Source: a virus. From it: a stretch of DNA of 64,000 nt. Of the stretch, positions 9,785-56,035 are shown one piece after another. Under the pieces are notes generated by a model that worked only from the letters and a program-made list of their open reading frames with translations, searched no databases and was not told the origin of the DNA. The stretch spans positions 1-64,000 of IMG/VR virus record IMGVR_UViG_3300045256_000135. One strand, given 5' to 3'. The position numbers and the translations under genes were made by a program. How positions within the stretch are numbered: the first letter of the stretch is position 1; every line of letters starts with the position of its first letter.

Positions 9785-11383
9785 ATGAAGACGCGCGAAG
9801 CACTCGGTGAACTGACGGGTCAGAGTTCTACACTGGGTTTCTCAGATCCGAAGGTTGCTGAGCACTTTCGGCGTGTTGCTGAAGCTCAGGAACGAGAGCG
9901 TGACCAAAGAGCTCAAGCTGTTCCTGTTTCTGCCCACCTTGTTGCTCTCGGTCAGAGAGTAGCAGCCCAACAGAATCAGGTATTGGATCAGTCGATGCCA
10001 GTCATCGACAAGTTTTCGGCCTATAAGACGGCGTCTGGAACGAAGGCAGCCACTCCCGCCCTGCGGAACTTCCAGCATCGTTTGAAGACAGCTTGGCTTG
10101 CCGATGAGCTTGGCAGCTATACTGCTAGAGATCTTCATCAGATGGCTGAGTTCTACAAGGCACAGTTCGGGAAGACGGCTGAGCCAGTGCTGAACATCAT
10201 CCGTGATGGGTTTGCCCACAACTCATACGCACAGCTCCCTGTTAGAAAGCTAGCCAATCTTGCTTCCGCAATTCATACTCAAGAAGAGTTTGACTACGCA
10301 ATGCGGAGAGCCGGCCTGGATGGCAATCGTCCAGATCAGGTGAAGGCCCGTCGTTTCATTCTGGCCCTTCTGAACAGAGAAGCTCAGGCTGACGAGTTCC
10401 TCCAGCAGATGCAGGCTGATGATGAGGGTGCTGAGCAGATGGAAGATGCTGCTATCAATCTTCTGACTGACGCGCAGGACATGGAGAAGGAAAGTGCAAG
10501 TTGCGCAGACTGCCAAGGTTCAGGTTGTGCAAACTGCCAGCCCGAAGGAGCTCCTCCGACGGGCAGTGACGTCCTCGTAGGGGTTGATGCTAGTGATGAC
10601 ACGGGATTGAATGTCCCTGTAACCATGCAACTGGAGAATTTCGGTGGCGAACAAGCTCCACCATTTGATGCCCAGGATGCAGCTGAGGCTAGAAAGAAGC
10701 GAGAAGGTCAGCCAGGGATGGCTCCCGTTCAGCCAGGGATGGCTCCCGTTCAGCCAGTTCAAGCTCCACCAATGCTAACTGCACGCCGCAGAGCAGCTGA
10801 AGAGCCAGGCAAAGCGAATTACGAGCCTGCTATTGAAGGGCAACAGGATGATGCAGTGAAGGTCAATGTGTGCCTCGACAAGGTAACTGCTGGGCAGGTG
10901 GTTCGGCATAACGGGTACTCACTGCATGCTGATTTCGGAACTGATGAGTTGGTAATCACTACGCCATCAGGCGCCACCCGCAGGGGCCATATTGTAGCAA
11001 TGCGAAAGATTGCTACAGACTTCGTTAGGGTCTCACAGAAGTCGCCGAACTTCAATCCGAAGGTAAATGCTCAACAGCCAGGCAAAGTGAAGCTACCTGG
11101 CGGTGGCGGAGCGGTGCTTGGAGACGATTCGGGTTCGGATCCGAAGCTGGATGGTGAGTTTGAGGTGTCCGTCTCAAAGAAGCCGAAGGACAAGGTTAGT
11201 GTTGAGAAGACTCCCGGACCAGACACACAGTCCGATGGACTTCAACACTTCAATGTGTCAAACCGTGGTCCCCACACGAACATCCCAAAAGGCAAGATGT
11301 CAGATAAGGATATCTGGGGTGACACTCAGCAAGATGGTCTGAATCTGTTCGACATCAAGATCAACGAGCCCCGGAGCAAGTGA
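9785..11383 (+). CDS. putative virion/internal head protein
   Basis: 532 aa, low complexity, many [KR]-x-A motifs, CADC/CANC pair. Confidence 0.5.
   Translation: MKTREALGELTGQSSTLGFSDPKVAEHFRRVAEAQERERDQRAQAVPVSAHLVALGQRVAAQQNQVLDQSMPVIDKFSAYKTASGTKAATPALRNFQHRLKTAWLADELGSYTARDLHQMAEFYKAQFGKTAEPVLNIIRDGFAHNSYAQLPVRKLANLASAIHTQEEFDYAMRRAGLDGNRPDQVKARRFILALLNREAQADEFLQQMQADDEGAEQMEDAAINLLTDAQDMEKESASCADCQGSGCANCQPEGAPPTGSDVLVGVDASDDTGLNVPVTMQLENFGGEQAPPFDAQDAAEARKKREGQPGMAPVQPGMAPVQPVQAPPMLTARRRAAEEPGKANYEPAIEGQQDDAVKVNVCLDKVTAGQVVRHNGYSLHADFGTDELVITTPSGATRRGHIVAMRKIATDFVRVSQKSPNFNPKVNAQQPGKVKLPGGGGAVLGDDSGSDPKLDGEFEVSVSKKPKDKVSVEKTPGPDTQSDGLQHFNVSNRGPHTNIPKGKMSDKDIWGDTQQDGLNLFDIKINEPRSK
10709..10757 (+). 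repeat. 21-nt in-frame tandem repeat (QPGMAPV x2.3)
   Basis: CAGCCAGGGATGGCTCCCGTT twice, then CAGCCAG. Confidence 0.9.
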
Positions 11384-14300
11384 TGAATCGCCGTAAGGCA
11401 GACGAGCTGCAGACTGGTGACTCGCTAATCGAGCCGATTGACTTTACGTCGAACGTTTCGGTAGCCGAAGATACCGAGCCTCCAACGGACGATACCAACG
11501 CTCCTAGAAGGATTAGCAGGATCGTTGATACCTTTGGTGGAGCACGGTCTACAGTGGTAGATCGGGTTGCTCAACGGTTAGCTCAGAGTGAGATCTGTAT
11601 GGTTTGTCACCAACCGATCAGCTCTCAAGAAGCACAGGAGTACATGCAGGAGACGGGTGACAGTGAGCCACCTCTCATCTGCATGAACTGCGCTTCGTCA
11701 CAGGCGCATGATGAGGACCGCAGCGGGGTGAACGCCGTTACGCCGTGGATGTATATGGCGCAGAGAACAGCGAAGCTTCGGGAGCAGAGCATGAACAGAG
11801 TTGCTGTACAGCAGGGCGAACGGTGGTGTAAGTACTGCAAGGTCAACCACCGCAAGAACACAAAGTGCCCTTACCAACAGGGGGCAGCAGCCCACCAACC
11901 AGATTCTGAACAGGACCACGGCCCCGACAAACTTCCTGGTGAGGAAGGTCATGCTGAACAGAACAAAGCTCAGCATAGTGAGGCGAAGCAGAAAGTTGTC
12001 AAAGCTGTCGATAGCTTTCTGAAAGCTCGTGGAATGTCGATAAGTGATGTTCTCAGTAGCCCCAAGAAGGACCGGATTCTCTCTGAGCTGTCTTCTCAAG
12101 TGAACAAAATCGCCCCATCAAACACACTTGGGACGATGAACAAGATTTTGAAGGAGCAGGGTGATGAGGCGTCTAACATTCCAGAACCTCCGGATTACCT
12201 TCCTCCCGGATCAAAGGGTTTGCAGTTCCAGCCACAAAAATCGAAAGAGCCATTAAACCAAGCTAAACCTAAGGAGCAAGCCCAGGTTCCGAAAGGTTCT
12301 GGTTCGTATCTCGATCAACGGAAAAAGGAACATGGTGGGACGTGGACCCCAGAGGACAATGATAAGTTCATCCAGTTCCTTGAACATGGCATGAAGTTGC
12401 CACCAAACCCGTTTGATCCTGATCGCAATGAGCGTTTCAAGAAGACCTTAGACGAAGCGAAGGAGTATAAACGCTCCTTGGAGCAACCAGCAACCTCTCC
12501 GCTTTCTGACACCCAAAAGTCAATCATGGACGACTTGCAGAAGCGTGAGAAGGGTTATGGTACACCTGCCACTCAAAGCCCTGAGCACCAAGCACTGCAG
12601 AGTAAGATTGACGCAATTGAATCGAAGATGGAGAACACTGATCCAAATTCACCAGAATTTGGTAAGATAGATCGTCAACGAGACTATCTCAACGACCAGC
12701 TGGAATCCCTCCCCCAACAGCAGAGCTCAGACGTACCTGATGACGATCCGGCAGAGATTGACGATCTCCTCCAACAGGAAGAGACTCAGAATCAAGCCTA
12801 CGATCAGGCAAACAAAACTCAGCAAGCCAGTGCAGAGCTCAACCAGATGGAGTCATCGTCTGGAGCACTTCCGAGAATGCTTGGAGATGTGCTAACAGCA
12901 GGACCAGACGAATACGCACAGGACGGGTGGGGGCAAGAAGAGTCTTCGGACGCCTACGACCTCATCAACAGTGGGTTTCTCAAGGAAGGTCCAAACTCCC
13001 GCCTCGAACTTACTGACAAGGGCAAGTCAGCATTTGCTGGGTCCCTAGCTGATCAGTTCGGCAATCAAACGGGTGAGAAGCTAGATCAGTACATGTCCCC
13101 ATCGACGCTATTCGTTCTCTCACCAACTTCGAAGCCAGCGAAGTGGATGGCTGAGAATGGGCTGATTAGCACATCGTCAGGGACGGTGCAACCCACTGAG
13201 CTTGGCAAGCAGGTCATGCAAGCGTTTGGACATGACCCCTACCAGCAGATGGAAACACCGTGGGCTCAAGACAAGCCATACAACGTTAATGACGTTCCGG
13301 ATGACGACCCAGATGAGATGGCTGATCTTCTTCAGCAAGAAGAGGATCAGAACCAAGCGTATGATCAGAACCAACAGCAGAAACCCGAGCAAGAAGCAAC
13401 ACCAAAGTACAAGGGACCAGGGTCGTATCTAGCATCAAGACAGGCTCAGAACGATGCCATGAACCCATACGACGACTACTCGGACCCTGACGAGGATTTC
13501 GAGCCGGTTGAAGAGCCCGAGGACTACGACCAGGTTGGTGAGGGAAAGTTCGCCTCTGCTGATGGTCTGATGTCCTATCTGTTCTCGTGGAAGGGTAGAG
13601 GGCTTCCAACGAAGGCTAGCCTCCAGCGCTACATTGACTCTCGCCAGGCTGGTTATGTTGTCATCGCTGTACACCCAGATACGCACAGAAGGGTTGCTAC
13701 AGTTCTGATTCGTGAAGGGCATCCTGACAGCACTTTCTCAAGCAAGCAAGCAGCTGTTAGATACGCTCTGAATGATGCTTGGGGCATGCCAACACCTGAG
13801 AAGGGCAACAACCCAGCTGGAATGGGAGCTGACTACAATGGCACGATCCTGAACAAAGAGGGTCAGGAGATGGACATCCCACAGAATGTGCCATCCGCTG
13901 GAGCAGATAACTCTGGCGGAGAGAAGAACGCTCAGGAGCAGTCTCAGCCTTGCAAGTACTGTGGCTCACCAAACACGAACGTTTACCCGAGTGGCGGAGG
14001 TGTTCAGACTCGACACTGCAACGATTGCTCAATGCAGTGGAGAGATGATTCCACAACGCCACAGCCATACGATCAGGGAGCAGCAAAGAGTGCTAGGAAA
14101 GGAAAGCTGATGAGCAAGAAGCAGGCAGCCCGCATCCACGAGGGCTGGGGTGACCAGAATGAGTACAAGCGAGAACTTGAAGCTGACTCTGCTGAAGACG
14201 TTTGGAAGCTTCACCAGAGCCTCAACGGCCAGGAAGTGACCTGGGCTCAGAAGGTACCTCCAGCAGTTGTTCCGCAGGACCCAGCAGTGACGCCGAATGG

Positions 14301-14478
14301 CGATGTGGAGATGCCTGAAGCCGAGCCGGATGAGCTAAAGGCGCAACAGCAAATGCCAGCAGCTGCTCCGAACCCAGGCGCTTCTCCAATGCCAATGCAG
14401 GCTCGCAAGCGAAACGCTCAAACGATTGACTCAGACTTCCCGGATGGGAAGGACGACCCGGAACTCAAGGGGAACTGA
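11380..14478 (+). CDS. large putative virion/internal head polyprotein (1032 aa)
   Basis: Q/D/E/P-rich; several CxxC pairs; internal duplication DVPDDDPxExxDLLQQEExQNQAYDQ; [KR]-x-A motifs. Confidence 0.55.
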   Translation: MMNRRKADELQTGDSLIEPIDFTSNVSVAEDTEPPTDDTNAPRRISRIVDTFGGARSTVVDRVAQRLAQSEICMVCHQPISSQEAQEYMQETGDSEPPLICMNCASSQAHDEDRSGVNAVTPWMYMAQRTAKLREQSMNRVAVQQGERWCKYCKVNHRKNTKCPYQQGAAAHQPDSEQDHGPDKLPGEEGHAEQNKAQHSEAKQKVVKAVDSFLKARGMSISDVLSSPKKDRILSELSSQVNKIAPSNTLGTMNKILKEQGDEASNIPEPPDYLPPGSKGLQFQPQKSKEPLNQAKPKEQAQVPKGSGSYLDQRKKEHGGTWTPEDNDKFIQFLEHGMKLPPNPFDPDRNERFKKTLDEAKEYKRSLEQPATSPLSDTQKSIMDDLQKREKGYGTPATQSPEHQALQSKIDAIESKMENTDPNSPEFGKIDRQRDYLNDQLESLPQQQSSDVPDDDPAEIDDLLQQEETQNQAYDQANKTQQASAELNQMESSSGALPRMLGDVLTAGPDEYAQDGWGQEESSDAYDLINSGFLKEGPNSRLELTDKGKSAFAGSLADQFGNQTGEKLDQYMSPSTLFVLSPTSKPAKWMAENGLISTSSGTVQPTELGKQVMQAFGHDPYQQMETPWAQDKPYNVNDVPDDDPDEMADLLQQEEDQNQAYDQNQQQKPEQEATPKYKGPGSYLASRQAQNDAMNPYDDYSDPDEDFEPVEEPEDYDQVGEGKFASADGLMSYLFSWKGRGLPTKASLQRYIDSRQAGYVVIAVHPDTHRRVATVLIREGHPDSTFSSKQAAVRYALNDAWGMPTPEKGNNPAGMGADYNGTILNKEGQEMDIPQNVPSAGADNSGGEKNAQEQSQPCKYCGSPNTNVYPSGGGVQTRHCNDCSMQWRDDSTTPQPYDQGAAKSARKGKLMSKKQAARIHEGWGDQNEYKRELEADSAEDVWKLHQSLNGQEVTWAQKVPPAVVPQDPAVTPNGDVEMPEAEPDELKAQQQMPAAAPNPGASPMPMQARKRNAQTIDSDFPDGKDDPELKGN

Positions 14479-14480
14479 AC

Positions 14481-14783
14481 ATGGTATATCGTGGATGGGC
14501 ACTGCTTCCGACAGGGAAGTATCTCAACCCTTCAAACCCTGATGGTGAGTACTGGGATCCTCAGTGCTCGATCATCATCTGCTCGAGGTACGGTGCTAGC
14601 AAGCCAGTTGCTCTGACTACATATGGTTCGCCACCCACATCAGTAGGTCAGAAGGCTTTCGGCTTCCACGATCAGAGTGGTGGTCAGATTCTTGAAGGGC
14701 AGGTTATCGGCATTCGTCGTCCAGACGGAACGACTGATGGTGAGGTGCCAAACGCACGCCTGCCACACTGGGTCTTCAAGTGA
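14481..14783 (+). CDS. hypothetical protein
   Basis: AAGGGG RBS; ATG 2 nt after the upstream stop. Confidence 0.6.
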   Translation: MVYRGWALLPTGKYLNPSNPDGEYWDPQCSIIICSRYGASKPVALTTYGSPPTSVGQKAFGFHDQSGGQILEGQVIGIRRPDGTTDGEVPNARLPHWVFK

Positions 14784-15250
14784 CTTAGGCCTGGAGCGGC
14801 ACCGAAGCCGCGAAAGGCAGGACATCATGGAAAGAGCGTTCAAGATCGGTTGCAGAGTTTTCTTCTTTGACAGTCAACGTCAGCCGCATGAAGCCATTGT
14901 TACGAATTGGTTTCATGGTGGACCGGATGGACAGACCCTTGAGGAGTATGCACAGAAGCCTGGGTACACTCCCAACTGGTTGCCTTGCTGCAACGTAGTT
15001 TGGGTTTCGTCTGACACGTCAAAGTCTGACAACTATGGCAGACAGATCGAACGTAACACTTCAGTCGCATATGGGCGTAGCCAAGGCATGATTCCGTTCA
15101 TTGGGATGTGCTGGTGCTGGCCCGACGAGATTGAAGAGGCTACGAAGTTGGCTGAAGAGGCTTACGCCAAATCAGTAGCGAAGTAGCACCCAGCCAGGTG
15201 GAACCCACGAGGAACCACAACCCTGGTTTCGATGTCGCTCCAGGCCTAAG
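14784..15250. repeat. 26-bp inverted repeat (arms 14784-14809 and 15225-15250) enclosing one gene
   Basis: CTTAGGCCTGGAGCGGCACCGAAGCC pairs with GGTTTCGATGTCGCTCCAGGCCTAAG: 23 Watson-Crick, 2 G.U, 1 C.A. Confidence 0.9.
14827..15186 (+). CDS. small beta-rich hypothetical protein (..YGRQIER..) inside the inverted repeat
   Basis: AGGA RBS then ATG; 119 aa; IGCRVFFFD..HEAIVT..CNVVWVS. Confidence 0.75.
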   Translation: MERAFKIGCRVFFFDSQRQPHEAIVTNWFHGGPDGQTLEEYAQKPGYTPNWLPCCNVVWVSSDTSKSDNYGRQIERNTSVAYGRSQGMIPFIGMCWCWPDEIEEATKLAEEAYAKSVAK

Positions 15251-16003
15251 GTAAATAGACGTATGCATCCACAACTCTTAGTCAGTTGGTTGTCCAAGAA
15301 GCACTGGGACAAGTTCAAAGTGCCTGGCAGTTGGTTCGGCGGACTTGAAGTAGATCGTGGCGCGGTCTACGTTCGTCTGCTTGGTTTGGAGATGATGTTT
15401 ATCGCCAACGCTGGAATCGGTGTGATGAAGAATCAGGTTTCAGGCACCATGGGCCACGGTTTCGTTGGAGACGAAGACGGTGGAGGTGAGTCGTGCCAGA
15501 ACTAATGCACACCCACGATTGGGGAATGTGGCTAGGGCATGACCCTACGTTCTTCGAGATGGGTGGCACTGGCCCCTATCGTTACTACCGTGTCTGCGAA
15601 GTGTTTGGATGCACTGCCAAGCAGAAGGCAGAAGATCTTCAAGCCACCGGCTTAGTTGCTGTAACCACGGTAGAAGCTGATCGAGAGCACATCAAGCAGA
15701 AGATGGAAAGTTGGAAGACTCGATGAACCAGCTAGAGATCAGCGGGATTGGGCACAACGCTAAGGTAACAGTTGTAGACGTGTATGGTAACAAACACGAT
15801 ATTGGTTGCGTCCAGCGAGTTGACGTCACCACAGAGGGGACAACTGTTATCTTTCCAAGCTCTGATGGACTGTCACCAGACCTTGAGGATAGGATTGCTC
15901 AGTACATGAGCAAGGTTGCCAGCACTGGTGCCAACGTTATCCGTCTGTCCAGGAAGAAGCTGAAAGTGCTGGAGCGTTTGGCGGACGTTACTCGGAGACT
16001 CGC

Positions 16004-16567
16004 ATGATCCTCCAGAACGTCACCACTAGCGTTGTTACGTTCATCCTGTACAAGACAGCGTCGGATGAACTGATGAGCAGCTACCAGTCTCGTAGACACT
16101 CTCGTAACAACCGAGTGTTTGTGAAGATCGATCCAAACTCTCGAACCGACCTCGTAGCTGATTGGGGTATGACTCCAGAAGAGCTGAAGGGTCAGCCAGA
16201 GCTTCAGAGAATGCTGACAGCAGGTTATGTCAGAGAGCTGAAGGACTCAGAACTTGGGATTGTGTTCGTGGATCCTAAGCCGTTGCTGACAGCTGAGGAT
16301 CTCCTTAGACATAGGCAGCTCCCTGTATTAGTAGTGCATCCACCAGACGAACCTACTCCCAGCTTATTGGATAGCAGTGTCGAACCACCTCCTGTTATAG
16401 ACAGGTTAGATGTGGTTGATGATTTGAAGGTTGAAGCACAGCCTGAGCTAAAGACTGCTCCAGCGCCTGCAGTGCTAAGTGGCCCTGCCAAGTGCCCGTG
16501 TGGGAGAGAGTTCAAGAACGACAAAGGCTTACAGCTTCATCAAAAGTTCTGCAACGCTGCTCCTTGA
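16004..16567 (+). CDS. hypothetical protein with a C-terminal C2H-C zinc finger
   Basis: CPCGREFKNDKGLQLHQKFC; its stop is the TGA of promoter P1's -35. Confidence 0.6.
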   Translation: MILQNVTTSVVTFILYKTASDELMSSYQSRRHSRNNRVFVKIDPNSRTDLVADWGMTPEELKGQPELQRMLTAGYVRELKDSELGIVFVDPKPLLTAEDLLRHRQLPVLVVHPPDEPTPSLLDSSVEPPPVIDRLDVVDDLKVEAQPELKTAPAPAVLSGPAKCPCGREFKNDKGLQLHQKFCNAAP

Positions 16568-46211: not shown

Positions 46212-46283
46212 TCTGGTGTAGCTCAGTGGAAGAGCAATCGGCTGTTAACCGATCGGTCGTAGGTTCGACCCCTACCACCAGAG
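46212..46283 (+). tRNA. tRNA-Asn (GUU)
   Basis: Acceptor TCTGGTG/CACCAGA; ATCGG-CT GTT AA-CCGAT; GGTTCGACCC. Confidence 0.95.
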
Positions 46284-46288
46284 CAAAT

Positions 46289-46362
<74 letters not shown>

Positions 46363-46751
46363 CGGAGGACTTTATGGACGAAACTCTTCGTAAACCTTAC
46401 GACCAGCGTCTGTCGTACATTGCTGGTCTGAAAGATGGATGGTTCAAAGAAGGGGAGGGTCGTGCACCTTCTCTGGCAGCCATTGCGTATGCTCGAGCGC
46501 TGCTTGATCGGCTCAACCTGAACACCAATTTCGGTGTTTACCCCATGGGCGATGGTGGTATCCAGTTCGAATTACACTCAACCAAGTGTGTGATCTCACT
46601 TGAGATCCCCTACTCCGCAGATTCCGAGCACGCTCAGATCAATGTGGCTATGTCATCCGCTGATGTTGATGTCGAAGTCAGAGTCAAGGTACAGGCTATT
46701 GATCGGGTGGCGAAGTGGTGGGAGCGCTTGTCGATTGTCCAGGAGTAAGTA

Positions 46752-47264
46752 ATGAAATCGGTCTACGTTGCAGCTCGGTCGAAAGAGTTGGTTCGTGCTA
46801 AGGAAGTGATGCGTGGTCTCGAAAAGATCGGGTTTAGCATCACGTTTGACTGGACAGAAGAGATTCTGAAAAACCGTGCAAAATACGGGAAGTTCGAAAC
46901 TACTCCCGAGCGCGTGCACAGGGCAAACGCTAGACAAGATGTGTTAGGTGTGCTCAGGGCGTCAACTCTCGTGCTACTTCTTCCGCAGACGCCTGAGAAT
47001 CTACCGGTCTATGAGACGACCCCAGGTAGTTGGGTGGAGCTTGGAGTCAAGATCGGGCAGATGTACGAAGCTCGACCGTTTGGTGGTAGCAATTTCCGTG
47101 AACAATCTCTTCGCTGGTCAGATGTAAAGAGCCTGAGTCCGTATCAGATTCTGATCAGTGGACCTGACCCGAAGTCGATTTTCACATCGTTTTCAACCAA
47201 GAAACGGTTCGCAACAGATGCGGCGCTCATCAAGCACCTTGACAGACTCGAGCGTGGCCAATGA
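46752..47264 (+). CDS. nucleoside 2-deoxyribosyltransferase-like protein
   Basis: SVYVAA..FDWT..DVLGV..GSWVELG. Confidence 0.65.
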   Translation: MKSVYVAARSKELVRAKEVMRGLEKIGFSITFDWTEEILKNRAKYGKFETTPERVHRANARQDVLGVLRASTLVLLLPQTPENLPVYETTPGSWVELGVKIGQMYEARPFGGSNFREQSLRWSDVKSLSPYQILISGPDPKSIFTSFSTKKRFATDAALIKHLDRLERGQ

Positions 47265-47662
47265 AGGTTGTGGTCGGCGGAGGTCGAACCTTTGGTGACG
47301 AACGGAACCCGTCCGGTGGTCTGACTGACAAGGCTATCAATGAACGAGCTTTGCTGAAGCAGACGCTGGATCAGATTCATCGAGAGACACCAATCACATT
47401 GCTGATCCACGGTGGAGCTATGGGTGCTGATCACCACGCAGTACAGTGGGCGATGGAACGAAACGTACCACGCAAAGAGTTCCCTGCTAATTGGTTGATT
47501 GGACGTCAAGCTGGCCCAATCCGCAACCGCAGGATGATTCGCGAAGGCCAACCTGATTTGGTAGTGGTGTTCCCAGGTGGTACGGGAACTGCTCATCTGA
47601 CGAATGAGGCAAAACTAGCATCGGTTCCCGTTCAAACTGTACTAAGCACCGGAGAAGGCTGA
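47261..47662 (+). CDS. SLOG/YspA-like (DUF2493) protein
   Basis: VVVGGGR..IHGGAMGAD..AGPIRNRRM..FPGGTGT. Confidence 0.85.
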   Translation: MKVVVGGGRTFGDERNPSGGLTDKAINERALLKQTLDQIHRETPITLLIHGGAMGADHHAVQWAMERNVPRKEFPANWLIGRQAGPIRNRRMIREGQPDLVVVFPGGTGTAHLTNEAKLASVPVQTVLSTGEG

Positions 47663-48388
47663 TGGTGACAAAGAGGGTGCTTGACGACTTGAAGCTCATT
47701 CGTGAGCAAGCCCATGGTGGTGTTGCAAGGTGGGCTGATTATACGTCTTTGTCGGATGCGCTGTTACCTCAGTTGATACAAGCAGCGCAAGAGTTGCTTG
47801 ATCTTAAAGCCGCTACGCAACTCTGTCCCCAACACAAACCTTCCGGCGGCTACATTGCGCGATGCCTGGTTTGCACGGTAACAGAACAACATCGGGCGCT
47901 ATCAGCAATTGGATGCATCCTCGAGAAGACTGAGGTGTGTCTGTACGATTTGAGCGGAGATGTGAACGACGTAGTGAAACTGGCATCCGAGAAAGTGAGC
48001 GCACCATGACTGACGCTGAACGAGAAGCAGAGACTAAGCGGATTGCCCTAGGCCTTCGAGCTAAGGATCCGAAGCTGGCTGAGATCTGGTTTTGGTCTTT
48101 CACACCTTTGCCAATTGGCTTGCCAAGCGACGAACAGCTGGAAGAGGGTAGGCAGCTGCTCAGTGGCGAACTGACTCTTGCCCAACTTTCCGAGAAGCAT
48201 CCGGGGGTTTAACGTGGCAGTTGCATGCGAAATCTGCAAAGCTGGGTTGGACATTCACGAAGATGCTGGCTATGGTTATGCAAGTGCTCAGGAACTTCCA
48301 ACGCATCTCTGCGATAGATGCAGAAAGAATGTATCCTCGGGCATTCGAAAGATTGTGGAATGCTTGAAGCGTTCCAACGAAGTTGTTC

Positions 48389-48462
48389 GCGCCGATAGCT
48401 CCAACGGTTAGAGCAAAGGCCTTATAAGCCTGAGGTTGCTGGTTCAAGTCCAGCTCGGCGTA
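48389..48462 (+). tRNA. tRNA-Ile (UAU)
   Basis: GCGCCGA/TCGGCGT-A; AGGC-CT TAT AA-GCCT; GCTGG TTCAAGT CCAGC. Confidence 0.9.
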
Positions 48463-48501
48463 CTATGGTGTTGACAGTAGTTCCACGATCTTTGCTCAGA
48501 T

Positions 48502-48540
48502 CCTTGATTTTTGGATGGTCATTATTATGATCATTGTATG
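48502..48540 (+). promoter_or_regulatory. promoter P6 (leaderless; real ORF likely 48538-48723)
   Basis: TTGATT 48504-09, N16, TATGAT 48526-31, CATTGT, ATG 48538. Confidence 0.85.
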
Positions 48541-49591
48541 GAAGCCAAAGTAGCAAAGATCATTTCGGAGTTGGAGAGCAACGCTGATAGCAAGCTCCGA
48601 GATGTTGGAGCAAAGCTTCGAGAGCTCTACGCAATGGCTCCGTTCACTGCTTACGAACTCCGAGATATCGCGAAGCAGATGCTGATCGAGGCACGGGCCA
48701 AAGAGGCGAAAACTACGACCTAGCGAAGGGGGCGAGAGATGACAATGGATGAATCGATTCGAGCTGTTGCTGAGGCGTTTCCTGGAGCAGAGATCCACCT
48801 CTGCTATAGCGGAAAGCAGTTTCAGGTATCTATCATTGTCGGACCGTTTCTAGTGCTTGGTTCGGGTGCAAGTCTAGCGGATGCTATGAACTGCGCTCTC
48901 GACGACGCTCGTCGGACTAAGTGGTGGACTGGTACACCGGCGGTTTTGAGGTTGCGGAAAGCGAAGGTAGCATGAAGAAGCCACCGAGCAAGGTGTATGT
49001 GGACGTCGCCAATCCCGAGAATCCAGGGTTTGCTTACACAGAGGAGGAGCACTCCCATCCTGCCAACGCCGAACGGCGAGCGTTCCGCGTGCTTTACGTC
49101 CTCGCACCCCGCCCAAAGCGAAAGGTACTTTGTTGGGTGTTGAGGGATAACGATGATGATGAATTCGTCTGCCCTAAGACGGTCTCTGATCGTGGAACCC
49201 ATCCCAACAGAACGTTTGCTTTGCGTTTCCCCACTAAGCACCACGCACGAGAGTATCGTGAAAGTGAAGGCTTCCTCGAAAACATCTGCCCCGAACCCAT
49301 CTATCGTAAGGAGAGTAAGTGATGACTCAGAAAATGACTCGAGCTCAGTGGCTAGAAGGGATGAAGTTGGCTAAGACTGCAGTTGCCGAGTGCAGTAAAG
49401 TGATCGAGCAACATCGTCAAAGCAAAGCAATGCTGGAAAACCAGATTTACACTACGGAACAAGCTTTGGCCAAGGCTAAAGAACGCATCGTAGCTCTGGT
49501 GATGTCGGAACCAGCCGAAGACGACGAAGACGACTTGGACAAAGAGCCGGGTCCTCCTGCGGATGACTCGTTCGGGTTTCGTTGATACAAT

Positions 49592-49677
49592 GGCCCCTTG
49601 GCGGAACAGGCAGACGCAAGGGACTTAAAATCTCTAGTCGAAATGACGTGAGGGTTCAAATCCCTCAGGGGCTACCA
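49592..49677 (+). tRNA. tRNA-Leu (UAA), CCA encoded
   Basis: GGCCCCT/AGGGGCT-A-CCA; AGGGA-CT TAA AA-TCTCT; long variable arm. Confidence 0.95.
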
Positions 49678-50057
49678 TGGAAAAGCAGGTTGATAAACGC
49701 GAGTTTTGGTGGGTTTGGGAGTGGGACCACCAATCGGTAAAGGACTGCCGACTCGATTTCACTTCAGTGTCTAGATGGAGACGAGGGTGGGTGACGCTGT
49801 ACAAGCTCACCACCGAAGGGGACTCACAATGGTGGGTTTACCTCCCGTTTAACATCGGTTTCGGATTTTCTTTCCCAAAGGGCAAATGAAGCTTCACATC
49901 ACGTTTTCGATCGAAGTTCCAGATGGCACACGAGTCAGTGACTTTCATCAGATTGTGCAAGAAGCTAAGCAGCTTCTACTTAGAGGGTCGTGGCCACACG
50001 TCGGAGTTGTTCAGGTAAGTAGGGAGCCTCGAGAGTCTGGGGCTAGGGCGATTCAAG

Positions 50058-50396
50058 ATGCATCCTCTCCGCGCATTCAAACTGGCTGATGAGCACGTTG
50101 GTAGCCCTGATCAGAGGAACTACCGACTAGCAGCAATTGCCATACGCAAGGACGGGTGCTTAGTAACCGCTCGGAATATCTCGAATTCGAGTCCGACGAT
50201 TGCTTGCCATGCTGAGGGGCGCCTTATGCGTAAGGCTGGAGCAGGCGCTACGGTATTTGTTCTTAGACGCAATCAAAAAGGCTGGGCAAATGCTAGACCT
50301 TGTCCGCGTTGTGAAGCTCTGATGCGGGCTCGAAAGGTTCTTCGGTGCTTCTATACGGTTGGCCCCAACGAATGGGGTTGCATCGAAATGAGGTGA
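50058..50396 (+). CDS. cytidine/dCMP-deaminase-like zinc deaminase
   Basis: HAE...ARPCPRC. Confidence 0.8.
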   Translation: MHPLRAFKLADEHVGSPDQRNYRLAAIAIRKDGCLVTARNISNSSPTIACHAEGRLMRKAGAGATVFVLRRNQKGWANARPCPRCEALMRARKVLRCFYTVGPNEWGCIEMR

Positions 50397-50399
50397 ACA

Positions 50400-51061
50400 G
50401 TGTTTAAGCTGACTACGTCCAAGGCTGAGATTACGCAAGACCAACTGCTTGAAACCGCTAGGTTTGCACTGCCAAAGTGGCCAGCTCTTGTGGTTGGCGG
50501 AGAGCGTGTTTCTCGAGAACAGGCACAAGAGATCCTCATTCGAACTGACGACTGGGACCACTTTACAAACGATCACGAATTCCGGTCGCAGATCTTGACG
50601 ACAGTGGGGATTCCGTTTAAGGTTGAGCATGGCCACGTCCAGCCAGATTGGGAGCACATGTTTCGAGCTGGGTTGGTGGTCCAAAAGGGTGGTGCGATTG
50701 GGATGGAAACATTGGTTGCAACACTTACAACATCGGCAAGTACCCTTCAGCAGCTGACGTGCTAGAAGATTGGCTAACTATTGCTGCAGAGTTCCCGTTC
50801 TTGAACCTGTTTGCTCAGCTGTATTCTGGCGAAAGCGGCGAAGACAACATCGAACCAGTGGTGGAATACCTAGTGTCGGAGGGTAGGGTTACGATACAGA
50901 CGCCAGATAAGTCGATCAGTATCAGACACCTCCGCCCTACCTCAACACTCACAGCTGACCTTATGCAAATCTTCGGCAACCCACACCGTGAGCGAGGTGT
51001 TGCTCTCCCAATGCTCAAAGAAGCTGTAGACCTGGTTCGACGTAAGAGAGCAGCTGCATGA
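50400..51061 (+). CDS. conserved phage protein split by a frameshift near 50650
   Basis: LPKWP..EILIRTD and SSWVGGPKGWCDWDG..NIGKYP read as two halves of one protein. Confidence 0.55.
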
Positions 51062-51674
51062 GCCCTTTGGAGCAAGCAGCTGGTACACTTGGAGCTCTTG
51101 GTGTCACCATGTACTACAAAGCGCTTTCGACGTCAGGTACTGCAACTATACCGAGTACTTGGCATTCAGCAGATTGGCATTCAGCAACTTGGGACATCGA
51201 TCCTCCGACTGGGGAATCAGTTTCAATGTCAGTGCAGCTGGTTGATGACACAGATGGCAACGTGCACGAAGTGTCACCAGTATTTCCAACTGAGATGGAA
51301 AAGGTCACACCAGACTTGATGGTGGTGAACGGTGAGTGGACTCAGCTAGTTGAGTCACTGATAAAGTGGATTTCGTACAACACACCAAAGTTCTCTGGTA
51401 TGGTAACGGCTCGTCTCAAAGCTGACGAGAGGTGGTTTAGTTTCTCTATCGAGCCACCGTATCACGGAGCAACTTTGATCCGGTTCAGGTGGATTGAGGA
51501 GGATGGTGGAGGGTCTCTGCGGGAGCTTCGCGAACTCCCACCTGAAGCTCGATCAGCTTTTGTGGAGTCCATCGACGACTTGATCGAGACTCTGGTCCAA
51601 ACCCACCACGAGCAGGTACAGTCGGGGTTGCTCGCAAACAGTCTGTTGAAGGACAAGATTCAGCAACTAACCAT

Positions 51675-51739
51675 TGGTAAACCTGTCTCCAAATGAGTTC
51701 TAGGTGTACGTAGCTATATAGTTAGCTGTGAGAAATCGA
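51675..51739 (-). repeat. dispersed element E3 (inverted)
   Basis: Reverse complement TCGATTTCTCACAGCTAACTATATAGCTACGTACACCTAGAAC...GAGACAGGTTTACCA; near-identical to E1 over about 35 nt. Confidence 0.85.
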
Positions 51740-51762
51740 CATCTGATAGCATTGATCCGACT

Positions 51763-51801
51763 CCTTGATTTCTGATCGATCATCATTATGATCATTGTAT
51801 G
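51763..51801 (+). promoter_or_regulatory. promoter P7 (leaderless)
   Basis: TTGATT 51765-70, N16, TATGAT 51787-92, CATTGT, ATG 51799. Confidence 0.85.
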
Positions 51802-51978
51802 AGCGATCCAAAAGTGAAGTGCCGGATCTGCAAAAACGAAACCCCGTGGTCTCAGTGGTTGTACGTTGGCGAGCAACCATCTGCGGATGACGGATTCAAA
51901 CTCGTTCTGAAGAACTGTCCGAAATGTCCAGACGGGCGCTCCAACACTCAGTCTATGACGGTGGTTGATGAGAACTAA
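51799..51978 (+). CDS. 59-aa zinc-finger protein (absent from the ORF track)
   Basis: MSDPKVKCRIC...CPKC...EN*; starts at the P7 ATG. Confidence 0.7.
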   Translation: MSDPKVKCRICKNETPWSQWLYVGEQPSADDGFKLVLKNCPKCPDGRSNTQSMTVVDEN

Positions 51979-53590
51979 GACCAGCTCGTTGCTCGAGAAG
52001 TATCTTCCGTCGTCCTCGCCCTTTTCGACTTCGTCAGTTCTGAACCCAACCCCAGGTGCAGCAGCAGTATACGCACCGGCATCAGAACGCGAATCCGAAT
52101 TGTCGCTCAAAGATCGCATGCTTCAAGTCATGCGAGTTCGACACCCAATGGGCATCTCGATCAAGATCAAAGGAAGCGCGGAAGAAAGTCAAGAAACGTT
52201 TGAAGGGTATTTCCCACCACCCACTTGGGAGCTGAAAGAGACTCCGATGCAGGTGGTGATGTCGACGATCAATTCAGTCATTGAGCGTCACCCTGTACCG
52301 AAACAGAAAACTCATGCACCAATTGCTGAAGAGATGCAGCTGGTACGTGAGATCTTAGACTGGATGGATGCAACCAACGCTAAGATCAATGTTCATCAGC
52401 TGCATTCGTTCACACTCTTCAAGGACATGTTCATTGAAGCAATCGCGAAGCGATCGAAGGAACCAAACACGGATCTTGATCGTGCTCTTCGTTTTTGCTC
52501 AGACGAAGTTTGGCAGGTAGTTCAGGATGCTGAGTGGCAGTCTGACATCACGCCGTTGGTCATTCGTCAGAATCCAGAGACCACTCTGTTTAGCCGAACG
52601 GTTCTGACAGGGTACTTGCATCAACGCATCTGTCTGGACGTTATGTCCAAGGCTGCTCATGACGCTAAGGAAAACAGATCAGCCAAGCCTCAAGTAACAC
52701 AGCCTGAATTGCCTGAAGACAAGTGGTTGATGCAGTATGGTTCAAGGCTCTGGTCTCGAGTTCACCGTGATCAAATGCGACTGATCGATGCTGTCCATCA
52801 GGAGAGTCATACGTCACCAGACGACCCACAGTTCAGGTTCGTTAAGCTTGTTTCGGGTTTCGCGTATCAGTGGGCTGACTCAGCCTTCCAGAAGCTGGTT
52901 ACAAGCCACACTTTCGCCGCAGCGCTGATGTCAACTAAGGTTGATGCAGAGTCCATCGAAGATCTGCAGCTACAGTGGAAAGCGTTCATGGTGGTCCTAC
53001 CAGAGAAGTTGGTTGATCACTGGGACCGACTGTACTTCTGGATTACTGGTGACGGCGGACAAGAACCATTCACCTATCACTTACTGGTGAGGGCTCAGAA
53101 CCATGAAGACGGATCGGTGTTAGTTAGCGGAAGCAACGTAGCTGAGTTGTTCAACGAGGCCGAAGAGATCGAACCCGTTGGCGAACTGTCGATCGCTCCT
53201 TATCATCAACGAGTGGTTCTACTTGCTAAGCGATTGATTGTTGGTTTGCTTCTGACCATGCAGAACACCAACAACTTCAAGAACAAAGAGTACGGTGGAC
53301 GAAACGCGGAGAAGGGTGAGCCACGTGGTGAGCCTAACCATCGAGTCTGCATGATCGGTAGGGCGATCAAAGTGGACTGTCGTCCAGCGATTCGGAAGTT
53401 TCTGGTTGGCACTGATCGACGCGGAAAGAGAGAAGTCGCTCCGCCATCAGTGCAGGTTCTGGTCCGTGGACACTACAAACGGCAAGTGCTTGGCGTTGGT
53501 CGGAAGCAGCGCAAAGTGATTTGGATCGAACCGTACTGGCGTGGACCCGAAGACGCTCCAATTCTCACTCGACCGAAGGAGTTTTCCTGA
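51965..53590 (+). CDS. hypothetical phage protein with a C-terminal VRGH..W motif
   Basis: VRGHYKRQ..RKVIWIEPYWRGP. Confidence 0.65.
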   Translation: MMRTKTSSLLEKYLPSSSPFSTSSVLNPTPGAAAVYAPASERESELSLKDRMLQVMRVRHPMGISIKIKGSAEESQETFEGYFPPPTWELKETPMQVVMSTINSVIERHPVPKQKTHAPIAEEMQLVREILDWMDATNAKINVHQLHSFTLFKDMFIEAIAKRSKEPNTDLDRALRFCSDEVWQVVQDAEWQSDITPLVIRQNPETTLFSRTVLTGYLHQRICLDVMSKAAHDAKENRSAKPQVTQPELPEDKWLMQYGSRLWSRVHRDQMRLIDAVHQESHTSPDDPQFRFVKLVSGFAYQWADSAFQKLVTSHTFAAALMSTKVDAESIEDLQLQWKAFMVVLPEKLVDHWDRLYFWITGDGGQEPFTYHLLVRAQNHEDGSVLVSGSNVAELFNEAEEIEPVGELSIAPYHQRVVLLAKRLIVGLLLTMQNTNNFKNKEYGGRNAEKGEPRGEPNHRVCMIGRAIKVDCRPAIRKFLVGTDRRGKREVAPPSVQVLVRGHYKRQVLGVGRKQRKVIWIEPYWRGPEDAPILTRPKEFS

Positions 53591-54431
53591 TGAAAGTTAG
53601 CATTTACGTTACCATCGCACCCAACGCCGATCGGCCTTATGTCACAACTTTTCCGCCTCCAGAAGACCTTGCGGAACATCGCAAGCAACTTGGGATTCGT
53701 GTGTTTTAGGGTTGACGCTGATCTTCCAGTGTCTGCTACGGACGTGGTTACTGTCCAGCCAAAAGCGGTGGAACCGATCTGAGAAGATCGAGTATTTTCA
53801 TTAGAATAGAGGTATGTCGTACTCTATTCCGCCCGGTATCTCTTTGCGTGACATGCAAGAAGCAACCGAGCAGGCTTTGAAGGACGGAAACATTGCAGCA
53901 GTCCTCGCGTTCCTGCACGCTAGATTGATGTTGTTGGAAGACACACCAACCCGCCCTGGTTTCACCCCACAACGGAAGCCTACTCCACCCGGGTTCTATC
54001 GGGTGCTCCTTGAAGACTTGAAGAAGGACACAGACAAATGAGTGATGGGCCCGTTTCAACAAAGTTTGCAATTGGCGCTGAAGTCTTTTGGTTGAAGTTT
54101 CATGAGATAACGCCGTACCGATCACTTGCGGGGTTCTTGGGAGAGGTGGTTGGCGTACGCGAGTCTCCGGAAGGGTTTCTGTACGATGTGGAGTTCTGGA
54201 ACGGCGAGTTGGTCAGGGACATTGCAGAGCACTGGTTGTCCCCTAACGATGACGAGATCAATCCTTGTGATACGCAGTGCTCGGCATGCAAGTATCTGGT
54301 GATCGACCAGGCACAGTTTCGCAGTTGTTCGGAATGCAGCTCTGACATCTGTGTTGAGTGTGGCCTGTTCTCAGGAGACCGAGATGACTGGCTTTGTGAC
54401 GAGTGCTTTGCAAAAGAAACTCAGCCAGCAC

Positions 54432-54470
54432 CCTTGATTTCCGACTCCACATCATTATGATCATTGTATG
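54432..54470 (+). promoter_or_regulatory. promoter P8 (leaderless)
   Basis: TTGATT 54434-39, N16, TATGAT 54456-61, ATG 54468. Confidence 0.85.
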
Positions 54471-55115
54471 GATGAATACACACTACTCGGCTATGAAGGG
54501 TACTGGGACCCGAGAAAGCATCTGACGTGGGGAGCTGCGGCATACTCACACAATGGGATGCTTGTGAATGGCATCTCGAGGCTCACATCACCTCTCGACT
54601 TCTTCGAGGGAGGCTGCGACAAACGTGTAATCCAGAAGGTACTCAAGCAGCCAATCCATGCTCCTCTCTACTCGGTGGTGCAAATGTCCCATCTGATCAA
54701 GTGGGAGCTGCTCGCCTCTCTCCCACCGGATGGTCACGTTGATAACACTTGCTACCGATTGGAGACCGAGAACAGTGGTGCTTTGATCGGTTGTGGATCA
54801 CAGTCGGCTTTCAACAGTTGGCGAGCAGTTGCGATCAGTAGGATGCTGGAGAGGGTTGACCTGGCAGTGTTTGATCCGATCCCGACTGAGCTCAAGCTCT
54901 CTGAAGCTAAAGCCCGAATCGAATCAGCGTTGACTCTTAGCGTACATGATCCTCACGCTAGGGCATACGCTCACGTATTCTTCAAACTCAGTCGCAGGCA
55001 TAGTGTCGCCATGCTGCGCGGAGATCTGAAGGCAGCCGAAGCTGAGTTTGATCGCACTGTGGATCAGTTGGAGAAGCGCTTGGTAAGGAAGCGCCTTTCG
55101 CTCCTTGATCTCTGA
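54468..55115 (+). CDS. hypothetical protein (leaderless)
   Basis: Single ORF between P8 and P9. Confidence 0.7.
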   Translation: MDEYTLLGYEGYWDPRKHLTWGAAAYSHNGMLVNGISRLTSPLDFFEGGCDKRVIQKVLKQPIHAPLYSVVQMSHLIKWELLASLPPDGHVDNTCYRLETENSGALIGCGSQSAFNSWRAVAISRMLERVDLAVFDPIPTELKLSEAKARIESALTLSVHDPHARAYAHVFFKLSRRHSVAMLRGDLKAAEAEFDRTVDQLEKRLVRKRLSLLDL

Positions 55116-55141
55116 ATCATCATTATTATGATCATTGTATG
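55103..55141 (+). promoter_or_regulatory. promoter P9 (leaderless)
   Basis: TTGATC 55105-10, N16, TATGAT 55127-32, ATG 55139. Confidence 0.85.
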
Positions 55142-55428
55142 ACGACCTGGATTTTCGAATCGGAGTTTCGGTATCGTGGACGGATGTACGAAGTCAAGAT
55201 TTCCGACGCTCCCGAGAACGTTGGGATCATCGGTCTGGTTCGTGATGGAGACAATCGCGGAGTCCGCGCCCTGTTTCGCAAAATGCACCACGATGACGTG
55301 GAGAGCGGATGCAGAGTGGTTGGTAGTCAGACGTTGATCGTTGAGCGTCCAGACGGAGTTGACGTCAAGTTGTTGGAAGCTGCTCAGAAGCTCTGTCTGG
55401 GTTGGCCACAGTAGGTAAATGATCGTAG

Positions 55429-55513
55429 GGAAGGTTGGCCGAGTGGTTTAAGGCAGCGGTTTTGAAAACCGCCGTTGGGCAACCAACCGGGGGTTCGAAT
55501 CCCTCACCTTCCG
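55429..55513 (+). tRNA. tRNA-Ser (UGA)
   Basis: GGAAGGT/ACCTTCC-G; GCGGT-TT TGA AA-ACCGC; long variable arm. Confidence 0.95.
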
Positions 55514-56035
55514 CGAAATGCTATCGAAGCAGAAGCGTATCGTTCGAAACGCTTTGGATCGTGAATACCAGCGGGACCTGATTAAGCGCAAGCTGAAAGT
55601 TTCGTGCCCTCGATGTAGGGCCGCTCGTGGCAACCCGTGTATTCACGACCAAGGTCCGCGTCGTGGCCAGCCAATGGCTGGAGTACACAGGGATCGTTCT
55701 GACCTTGCTAACCGTGTTGGCTTGGTTAAGGGTCCACATTTCTGGGGAGGGCAAAGGTACAAGCGGAGGACGAGATGACGTTCACAATTGAACCTGGAAC
55801 AGTATTCTACGATCAGCTCGAAGACGGTAGGTTTGAGAAGTGCGTTTTTGCAACCCACTGACGAAGATACGCCCAACCGGAAGGAAGCAGCCCGCGGTGG
55901 CACAGGTGAGTTCTACAGAGAGATCAGCACAGAGGCATTCATGGCTCTCTCAGACGTAGAACAGGACGAAGTAGTGCTTATTCAAATGCCACGGGAAGGG
56001 ACGTTCCCAAGGCTTGTTACGCTGGAGAAGATCAA

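Follow-up and report, generated by a model that had tools for sequence, protein, structure and literature searches.

A conserved long-range RNA stem encloses small phage genes of one family and appears able to pair alternatively at the start codon

The window analysed in this study, by which we mean the whole stretch of DNA under consideration, covers the initial 64 kb of an IMG/VR virus record that is 183,244 bp long. On its + strand lies a gene for a protein of 119 aa (P0001; 14827..15186), with the sequence YGRQIER inside, which is enclosed by the two arms of an inverted repeat at 14784-14809 and 15225-15250. The arms are 26 nt long, 88 % complementary and separated by 415 nt, an interval occupied by a 17-nt leader, the ORF and a 38-nt trailer. 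The left arm begins at the base immediately following the TGA codon (14781-14783) of the upstream ORF (14481-14783), and 12 nt lie between the end of the right arm and the ATG at 15263. As RNA of the + strand the arms would form a stem, P1, of 23 Watson–Crick pairs, two G.U pairs and one C.A mismatch. The original prediction, made from the letters of this sequence alone, had placed the arms at exactly these positions around a ribosome-binding site and the 119 aa ORF, and had correctly noted that two of the three deviations from a perfect repeat are G.U pairs on the + strand. Just upstream of this region (11380-14478) is an ORF of 1032 aa in which an acidic segment is internally duplicated (DVPDDDP-E-DDLLQQEE-QNQAYDQ occurs twice) and which contains several CxxC pairs; its sole family match was a weak one to an SbcC-like PHROG (E 0.006).

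Each arm can be divided into two halves, and all of the elements described here are on the + strand. The outer half of the left arm (14784..14795), which forms the outer half of P1, is partnered by the outer half of the right arm (15239..15250), and the inner half of the left arm (GCGGCACCGAAGCC; 14796..14809) faces the inner half of the right arm (GGTTTCGATGTCGC; 15225..15238). The inner halves also have other potential partners. The GCGGC at 14796-14800 can pair either with 15234-15238 in the right arm or with 14807-14811, the latter giving a local 5' hairpin (14796..14811) with the loop ACCGAA, and A15232 of the right arm, which is mismatched in P1, would pair with U14825 in an alternative helix. 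That helix involves the bases directly ahead of the ORF (14819..14826), where a likely Shine–Dalgarno sequence, AGGA (14819-14822, identified by eye), is followed by a hexamer, GACATC (14821-14826), that abuts the AUG and is complementary to GATGTC at 15231-15236. Downstream of the ORF a trailer hairpin (15194..15226), the core of which reads GG-NN-CC, 5-nt loop, GG-NN-CC, lies directly 5' of the right arm and overlaps it by 2 nt. By eye, the only purine-rich run ahead of the ATG at 15263 is AAGG (15248-15251), a possible Shine–Dalgarno sequence for the next ORF; as the right arm terminates within these bases, the clamp formed by the paired arms may also mask that ORF's ribosome-binding site.

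Taken by itself, the window's genome gives the repeat a weak statistical significance. The arms are the best-scoring long-range inverted repeat of the whole genome, their sequence has no further occurrence in its 183,244 bp, and the flanking stem is present in the minimum-energy fold (z -5.9). The observed score was 18.5, and the best repeats in 30 dinucleotide shuffles of the whole genome scored 13.5-19.5, with one shuffle higher (19.5) and two at 18. The repeats of 24-26 nt that come next in rank lie outside the window (105331-105354 / 106538-106561, score 16.5; 82253-82278 / 84207-84232, score 16.0) and are within the shuffle range. The one shuffle of 30 with a higher score would be compatible with a chance match in this genome, an explanation to which we nevertheless attach practically no probability, since it is refuted by the recurrence of the stem, with covariation, in the 48 cassettes described below. 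Other searches of the locus added little. The DNA of 13500-16500 was not similar to any of 50,697 phage records, a consensus scan, of a kind that cannot exclude a promoter, gave no promoter-like site on either strand of that interval, and the Rfam covariance models returned only chance-level rows (E 0.58 and 8.2), although models of this kind could miss a structure that is interrupted by an ORF of 360 nt.

The comparative evidence came from relatives of the encoded protein. A large protein collection contained 96 of these, none with a functional name or a Pfam domain, and the family was absent from 185,579 prokaryote species, each represented by one genome. Fifty loci were fetched from viral contigs and 54 from metagenome contigs, and each of the first four full-length viral homologues fetched had a flanking repeat of 26-29 nt at the same place. 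Scanning 130 nt upstream and 200 nt downstream of each complete ORF, followed by a wider scan, identified 48 distinct cassettes in unrelated phage contexts with a flanking stem of 21-34 bp (median 26), and the stem scores were 14-25.5 versus a shuffle maximum of 16.5. Forty-six of these cassettes make up alignment A4, and the other two are locus L058 and the cultured Vibrio phage Va2 (L224; MW073017); 16 loci cut by contig ends were left out of the count. In Va2 a 42 %-identical homologue lies inside a 32-nt repeat that is 84 % complementary, the arms of which are AT-rich and wholly unrelated in sequence; their stem contains three G.U and no A.C pairs and is kept in the minimum-energy fold. 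In 21 more distant relatives, mostly without the CW[CA]WPDE motif, no stem scored above shuffles (L007 and L019 were borderline), which indicates that the protein can exist clamp-free. Exact matches to a 16-nt leader motif were found at at least 117 loci in viral contigs, most of them chance matches in GC-rich DNA, and among the matches listed a convincing matching 3' arm was present in three, all beside a family member (on the contigs of L004 and L098 and at a new homologue, L198), as expected from the earlier suggestion of an RNA-plus-protein cassette. Beyond the clamps, a scan of 430 kb of fetched loci gave only borderline repeats of 19-25 nt around other ORFs close to the family cassette (L097:461-485 / 875-899 and L059:1975-1993 / 2763-2781), one of which lies inside a tRNA array and spans a 170 aa ORF; these may be further clamps or chance matches.

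Alignment of the 46 cassettes allowed pairing to be assessed column by column. Standard pairs made up 91.8 % of the 1,194 cells of P1, compared with 73.3 % in shuffles and 34-45 % when the partner was slid, and 20 of the 26 pairs were changed on both sides, so that the flanks of the YGRQIER homologues do contain the covarying stem for which the original prediction had proposed they be tested. On five measures the observed values were reached by none of 500 shuffles, a control that ignores sequence relatedness. The two halves of the stem behave differently. The inner half is conserved in sequence (left GCGGCA-CGAAGCC, right GGTTTCG-TG-CGC), and the outer 10-18 bp are locus-specific in sequence with the pairing kept; at the positions corresponding to 14784-14795 the sequence varies among phages yet always pairs with that at 15239-15250, and all 12 outer pairs are changed on both sides across the 46 cassettes. 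The trailer hairpin core was 94.6 % paired with compensatory change in four of its six pairs, and RNAalifold, applied to 16 cassettes, recovered the same P1 and trailer hairpin independently. Unpaired leader and trailer motifs are also conserved, and nucleotide conservation is high across the first codons. Not all of the folds originally proposed were borne out in the same way. An extension of the stem past a bulge, in which AGG of the ribosome-binding site pairs with CCT at 15222-24, is available in this sequence and yet, with 59.3 % of cells paired as in shuffles, drew no comparative support; the pairing GCCAGG/CCTGGT proved to be the base of the trailer hairpin, the covariation of which lies in its upper part; and a local GCC-GCGAAA-GGC fold did not exceed shuffles. 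We also considered and rejected a hammerhead or split ribozyme, which was suggested by GAUGAGG in the trailer loop and CGAAA in the leader, because inspection by eye showed a strand order and a stem II pairing incompatible with such a ribozyme, and a C in place of the essential U of CUGA. It is thus comparative sequence evidence, and not the single genome, that has confirmed the 26-bp flanking stem, and we consider it very probable that the stem is a real RNA structure, maintained by selection and linked to this gene family.

Inverted ends around a small ORF could also suggest an action at the level of DNA, in which a small mobile cassette would have the arms as its terminal inverted repeats or as sites of recombination, and would have drawn their outer halves from the insertion targets. 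The distribution of the cassettes has several features in keeping with this. The neighbourhoods are unrelated, no ORF apart from the cassette ORF being common to the first five loci within ±3 kb, and where unrelated contexts were compared the DNA similarity started and stopped at the inner stem. L076 and L093 have syntenic flanks and ORFs of different subfamilies (117 and 82 aa), and yet leader and trailer are very similar between these subfamilies: two loci 80-82 % identical to L076, namely L075 and L077, agree with L093 at 90 % over the leader and 95 % over the trailer. The similarity bounded by the inner stem and the exchange of subfamily with leader and trailer kept indicate that the clamp and the ORF move or recombine as a unit. 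In L058, moreover, an ORF for a 150 aa homing endonuclease of HNH type (motifs identified by eye; L058:483-935) is situated in the trailer between the family ORF and the right arm, and the arms, 890 nt apart, still pair. Against a mobile element of this kind, the arms and the protein are present in one copy in the 183-kb genome, the family is missing from the prokaryote species genomes, and, as already noted in the original prediction, neither a target-site duplication nor a transposase was seen: by eye the flanks ...AAGTGA and GTAAAT... have no common direct repeat, and no transposase-like family was found in the four ORFs scanned with Pfam or the five scanned with PHROGs. Empty sites in related phages, which it had been proposed to look for, were not found; the flanking proteins of 100 and 80 aa have no relatives in viral contigs, and the Va2 region matched other phages over tRNA genes only.

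The arms themselves also bear on this point. The non-Watson–Crick positions of 21 conservatively de-duplicated outer stems comprised 16 G.U, four A.C and seven other combinations on the coding strand (binomial p 0.012), and a looser count by eye over 43 stems gave about 22 G.U and about 10 A.C, a modest excess. The phages of L004, L063 and L068 share their flanking genes (71-79 % identity) and the position of the cassette, but their outer stems are far more diverged and nevertheless paired, which fits compensatory change in place and not the capture of a target palindrome. Finally, the right arm covaries with bases abutting the AUG (see below), which is meaningful only in RNA, and Vibrio phage Va2 keeps the stem with arms of unrelated sequence. 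The comparison of sequences therefore points to pairing that acts in RNA of the coding strand, as originally supposed, and we regard an action of the arms in DNA as improbable.

The protein itself gave few clues to its function. The AlphaFold2 model, built from 45 sequences, is a confident one (pLDDT 91.9) and shows a small beta-barrel with a long helix at its C-terminal end, and on this model the 119 aa protein is not a small hydrophobic toxin. Foldseek searches of the PDB and BFVD returned nothing at E <= 0.001, the weak rows being chromo/Tudor/SH3-like barrels and uncharacterized phage proteins; Pfam gave only a sub-threshold HicB-like row (E 0.2); PHROGs, NCBIfam and PADLOC contained no family for it; a PDB sequence search gave nothing under E 0.79; and the ESM Atlas contributed only unnamed viral clusters. 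The sole tblastn match among 50,697 phage records was Vibrio phage Va2.

In addition to the left arm, the conserved G-N-U-G-Y-C of the right arm has a second partner, the hexamer at -6 to -1 of the AUG (14821-14826 GACATC / 15231-15236 GATGTC). The leader and right-arm sequences of this helix change together, being GACAUC/GAUGUC, GGCAUC/GAUGCC, GGCACC/GGUGCC, GGCAGC/GCUGCC or GACAGC/GCUGUC, and the helix was paired in 88.8 % of cells (shuffles 81.2 %, slid controls 17-50 %). Changes on both sides were present in 25 cells, compared with 8.6 in shuffles, and 0 of 500 shuffles equalled the observed values. The competition is best illustrated by column 584 of the right arm, which is unpaired with the left arm (column 34) in 35 of 46 cassettes and paired with the leader (column 77) in 37 of 43, as UA in 25, GC in six, AU in four and CG and GU in one each. 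The left arm likewise has a local alternative, the 5' hairpin formed by its GCGGC and the downstream GCCGC, which was paired in 100 % of cells (n=46), with seven cells changed on both sides versus 0.6 in shuffles (0 of 500) and with the compensatory variants GUGGC/GCCAC, GCGAC/GUCGC and GCAGC/GCUGC. With two conserved alternative partners for the right arm, the clamp looks bistable, and from the alignments two states seem conserved. One would consist of the full P1 with the leader free; the other would combine the outer stem, the 5' hairpin and a right arm placed on the pre-AUG bases, overlapping the likely AGGA identified by eye. In constrained folding the full P1 was the minimum-energy state in most loci, and the alternative state was about 3-10 kcal/mol higher in most loci that keep the hexamer helix, which is absent or weak in about nine clamped loci. 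No conserved partner is available in the full P1 to the leader bases between 14812 and the AUG, and the ribosome-binding site is modelled as free.

These helices raise the possibility, which we judge to be real if distinctly the less probable course, that the clamp serves above all as a switch of translation or an operator for autoregulation, and not for processing. Some factor, in the simplest case the beta-barrel protein itself, would bind the conserved 5' hairpin or the trailer hairpin and so place the right arm on the pre-AUG bases, turning translation off, in a manner that can be likened, with the same reserve, to hok-type fold-back control and to phage translational repressors. The covariation among three partners, the behaviour of column 584 and the conservation of loop and trailer sequences are all consistent with such a switch, and there is a precedent in the hok mRNA, for which a 5'-3' tac/fbi stem and a metastable hairpin are described (PMC9841398). 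The fold searches, however, gave no RNA-binding relative of the protein at E < 0.01, the occluding state is the one predicted to be less stable by 3-10 kcal/mol, the pre-AUG helix is missing in some nine clamped loci, and the outer 12-16 bp of the stem would be superfluous for a local switch.

A further property of the cassettes is their frequent association with genes for stable RNAs. With ARAGORN, 15 of the 48 clamped loci proved to have tRNA or tmRNA genes on the same strand within their fetched flanks, and 33, the window's included, did not; of 19 unclamped loci scanned, two had a tRNA or tmRNA gene, in one of them on the opposite strand. In eight clamped loci a tRNA or tmRNA gene lies within 75 nt of an arm. 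The cassette of L059 is between two tRNA-Leu genes (gaps of 25 and 33 nt) and that of Va2 between tRNA-Glu and tRNA-Arg (gaps of 2 and 5 nt), the right arm of L058 overlaps the first 3 nt of a tRNA-Val gene, the left arm of L055 begins 42 nt after the end of tRNA-Thr, and L076, L093, L095 and L098 adjoin a phage tmRNA gene or tRNA-Leu (CAA). For orientation, about 8 % of positions in the window's genome are within 3 kb of a tRNA. The window's own tRNA genes (Asn, Arg-TCT, Ile-TAT, Leu-TAA and Ser-TGA) are at 46212-55514, and since its cassette is 31 kb from the nearest of them, tRNA adjacency is frequent but not required. Phage tmRNA genes with tags beginning ANDN or ENDN were located at or near cassettes at L059:4742-5083, L076:3490-3858, L093:1837-2215, L095:1215-1579 and L098:1918-2264, and the tmRNA genes near clamped cassettes are accompanied by large tRNA arrays in these metagenomic phages. 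A further ARAGORN call in Va2, lying two genes upstream of the cassette (L224:1270-1344), is a tRNA whose anticodon is TTA (‘tRNA-Stop’) and which may be an ochre suppressor; the deposited MW073017 record has no annotated feature at that place in the stretch shown.

Such surroundings could mean that the leader, trailer and protein constitute a ribonucleoprotein linked to tRNA or tmRNA biology, the stem scaffolding an RNA that carries its partner's ORF in the loop. The repeated placement of the cassette between tRNA genes or beside a phage tmRNA gene (L059, L076, L093, L095, L098 and L224) would fit this, as would the conserved unpaired motifs of leader and trailer and the high nucleotide conservation in the first codons. 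We nevertheless consider it unlikely. The cassette matched nothing in Rfam, a tRNA-like or tmRNA-like fold of the clamp was rejected because ARAGORN made no tRNA or tmRNA call on any cassette itself, and the majority of clamped loci (33 of 48), that of the window among them, have fetched flanks free of tRNA and tmRNA genes. A candidate loop-to-ORF interaction, the kissing of the trailer loop AACCGAU with codons 7-9 (AUCGGUU), was present in several loci but was rejected because its changes were, by eye, uncompensated.

On balance, the explanation we favour, and think somewhat probable, is that the arms constitute a cis-acting mRNA end-clamp that combines processing, stabilization and translational gating. 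In this reading the arms, which are co-inherited with the enclosed protein, form a 5'-3' clamp joining the leader and trailer of one small mRNA, and their double-stranded RNA of two to three helical turns would mark or insulate the cistron so that it can be cut out of longer transcripts that read through it or come from tRNA/tmRNA arrays. The cutting might be carried out by RNase III, a putative but plausible step that the original prediction had also proposed, or by tRNA-processing enzymes where tRNAs abut the arms, and the released mRNA would then be protected by its paired ends. The switch of partners would gate translation, the full clamp leaving the ribosome-binding site accessible and the alternative fold covering it. 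Circularization of the mRNA, which had been put forward as another outcome, found no support. The points that weigh against an end-clamp are that the repeat in the single genome is only marginally above shuffles, that the window's cassette is distant from any tRNA gene, that the 21 distant homologues have no convincing clamp, that the G.U excess is modest, that the shuffle control takes no account of relatedness, and that the alternative state is predicted to be less stable, its pre-AUG helix being missing or weak in about nine loci.

A more speculative extension of the end-clamp, which we hold only tentatively, would make the cassette a self-contained RNA–protein module on a bistable mRNA. 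Its 3' arm would toggle between the 5' arm, leaving the ribosome-binding site open, and the bases abutting the AUG, closing it, with the toggle set through the 5' or trailer hairpin by the beta-barrel or by a signal linked to tRNA or tmRNA. The clamp would allow a protein gene to live in tRNA/tmRNA arrays, its mRNA being freed by tRNA-processing enzymes or RNase III with the ends already paired. If this were true, viruses of bacteria would have, in this module, their own version of tRNA-punctuated mRNAs, equipped in addition with a switch.

To our knowledge, bacteria and phages offer few gene-spanning 5'-3' mRNA stems of proven conservation, rRNA stalks and hok toxin mRNAs being the textbook cases, and our search of the literature found no paper describing this clamp or its protein. 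The clamp described here is specific to one gene family and has been kept by covariation from an AT-rich Vibrio phage to phages of about 70 % GC, with a second layer added by the helices that compete around the start codon and with tRNA/tmRNA arrays as a recurrent location. Confirmation would make it a new class of cis-regulatory RNA and a clean natural system in which to follow how mRNAs lying among stable RNAs are released and protected, and would give a clue to what this widespread orphan protein of phages does. As the cultured Vibrio phage Va2 carries a version of the clamp, the question is testable at the bench.

Several known systems can be compared with the clamp. In rRNA operons, pairing of the regions on either side of the product gives a helix of some two or more turns, maintained by covariation, that forms an RNase III stalk; the RNase III sites of T7 early mRNA are, by contrast, local hairpins and not gene-spanning stems. 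Like the rRNA stalk, the clamp arms form a double-stranded RNA of at least 20 bp (21-34 bp) that is present in the minimum-energy fold, its pairing is maintained by compensatory change (20 of 26 pairs), and its setting is polycistronic, with tRNAs possible. Unlike the stalk, it encloses a protein cistron of a single family, and its inner half is conserved in sequence and can pair in alternative ways. A second parallel is mitochondrial tRNA punctuation, which the clamp resembles where the cistron lies directly between tRNA genes, as in L059, L058 and Va2, so that RNase P and 3' tRNA processing would release it. Most cassettes, including the window's, differ from this arrangement in having no flanking tRNAs, and we know of no end-to-end clamp in mitochondrial mRNAs. 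A third is with small elements that have inverted ends, such as mycobacteriophage MPME, a small inverted-repeat mobile element with a single ORF of about 120 aa, and the Correia repeats of Neisseria, the hairpins of which have been reported as RNase III substrates. The cassette resembles these in its size (about 440-500 bp) and inverted ends, and differs in being single-copy, without target duplication and with outer arms that are not conserved in sequence; identity with MPME was rejected, as the tblastn search of 50,697 phage records showed no protein similarity except to Vibrio phage Va2.

A parallel for the switching of partners is the hok mRNA, whose fold-back silencing had been among the mechanisms originally suggested and in which a 5'-3' tac/fbi stem is accompanied by a metastable hairpin formed by the 5' element and its downstream neighbour (PMC9841398). 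The clamp shares with that description a long-distance stem between the 5' and 3' UTRs and a local hairpin of the 5' element, and here too competition between partners would decide access to the ribosome-binding site (PMC9841398). The differences are also clear. The product is predicted to be a soluble beta-barrel protein of 119 aa and not a membrane-acting hok-type peptide of about 50 aa, and no antisense RNA was seen for the clamp in the consensus promoter scan of 13500-16500, which cannot exclude one. The fully clamped form, moreover, leaves the ribosome-binding site free in the model, the reverse of hok (PMC9841398).
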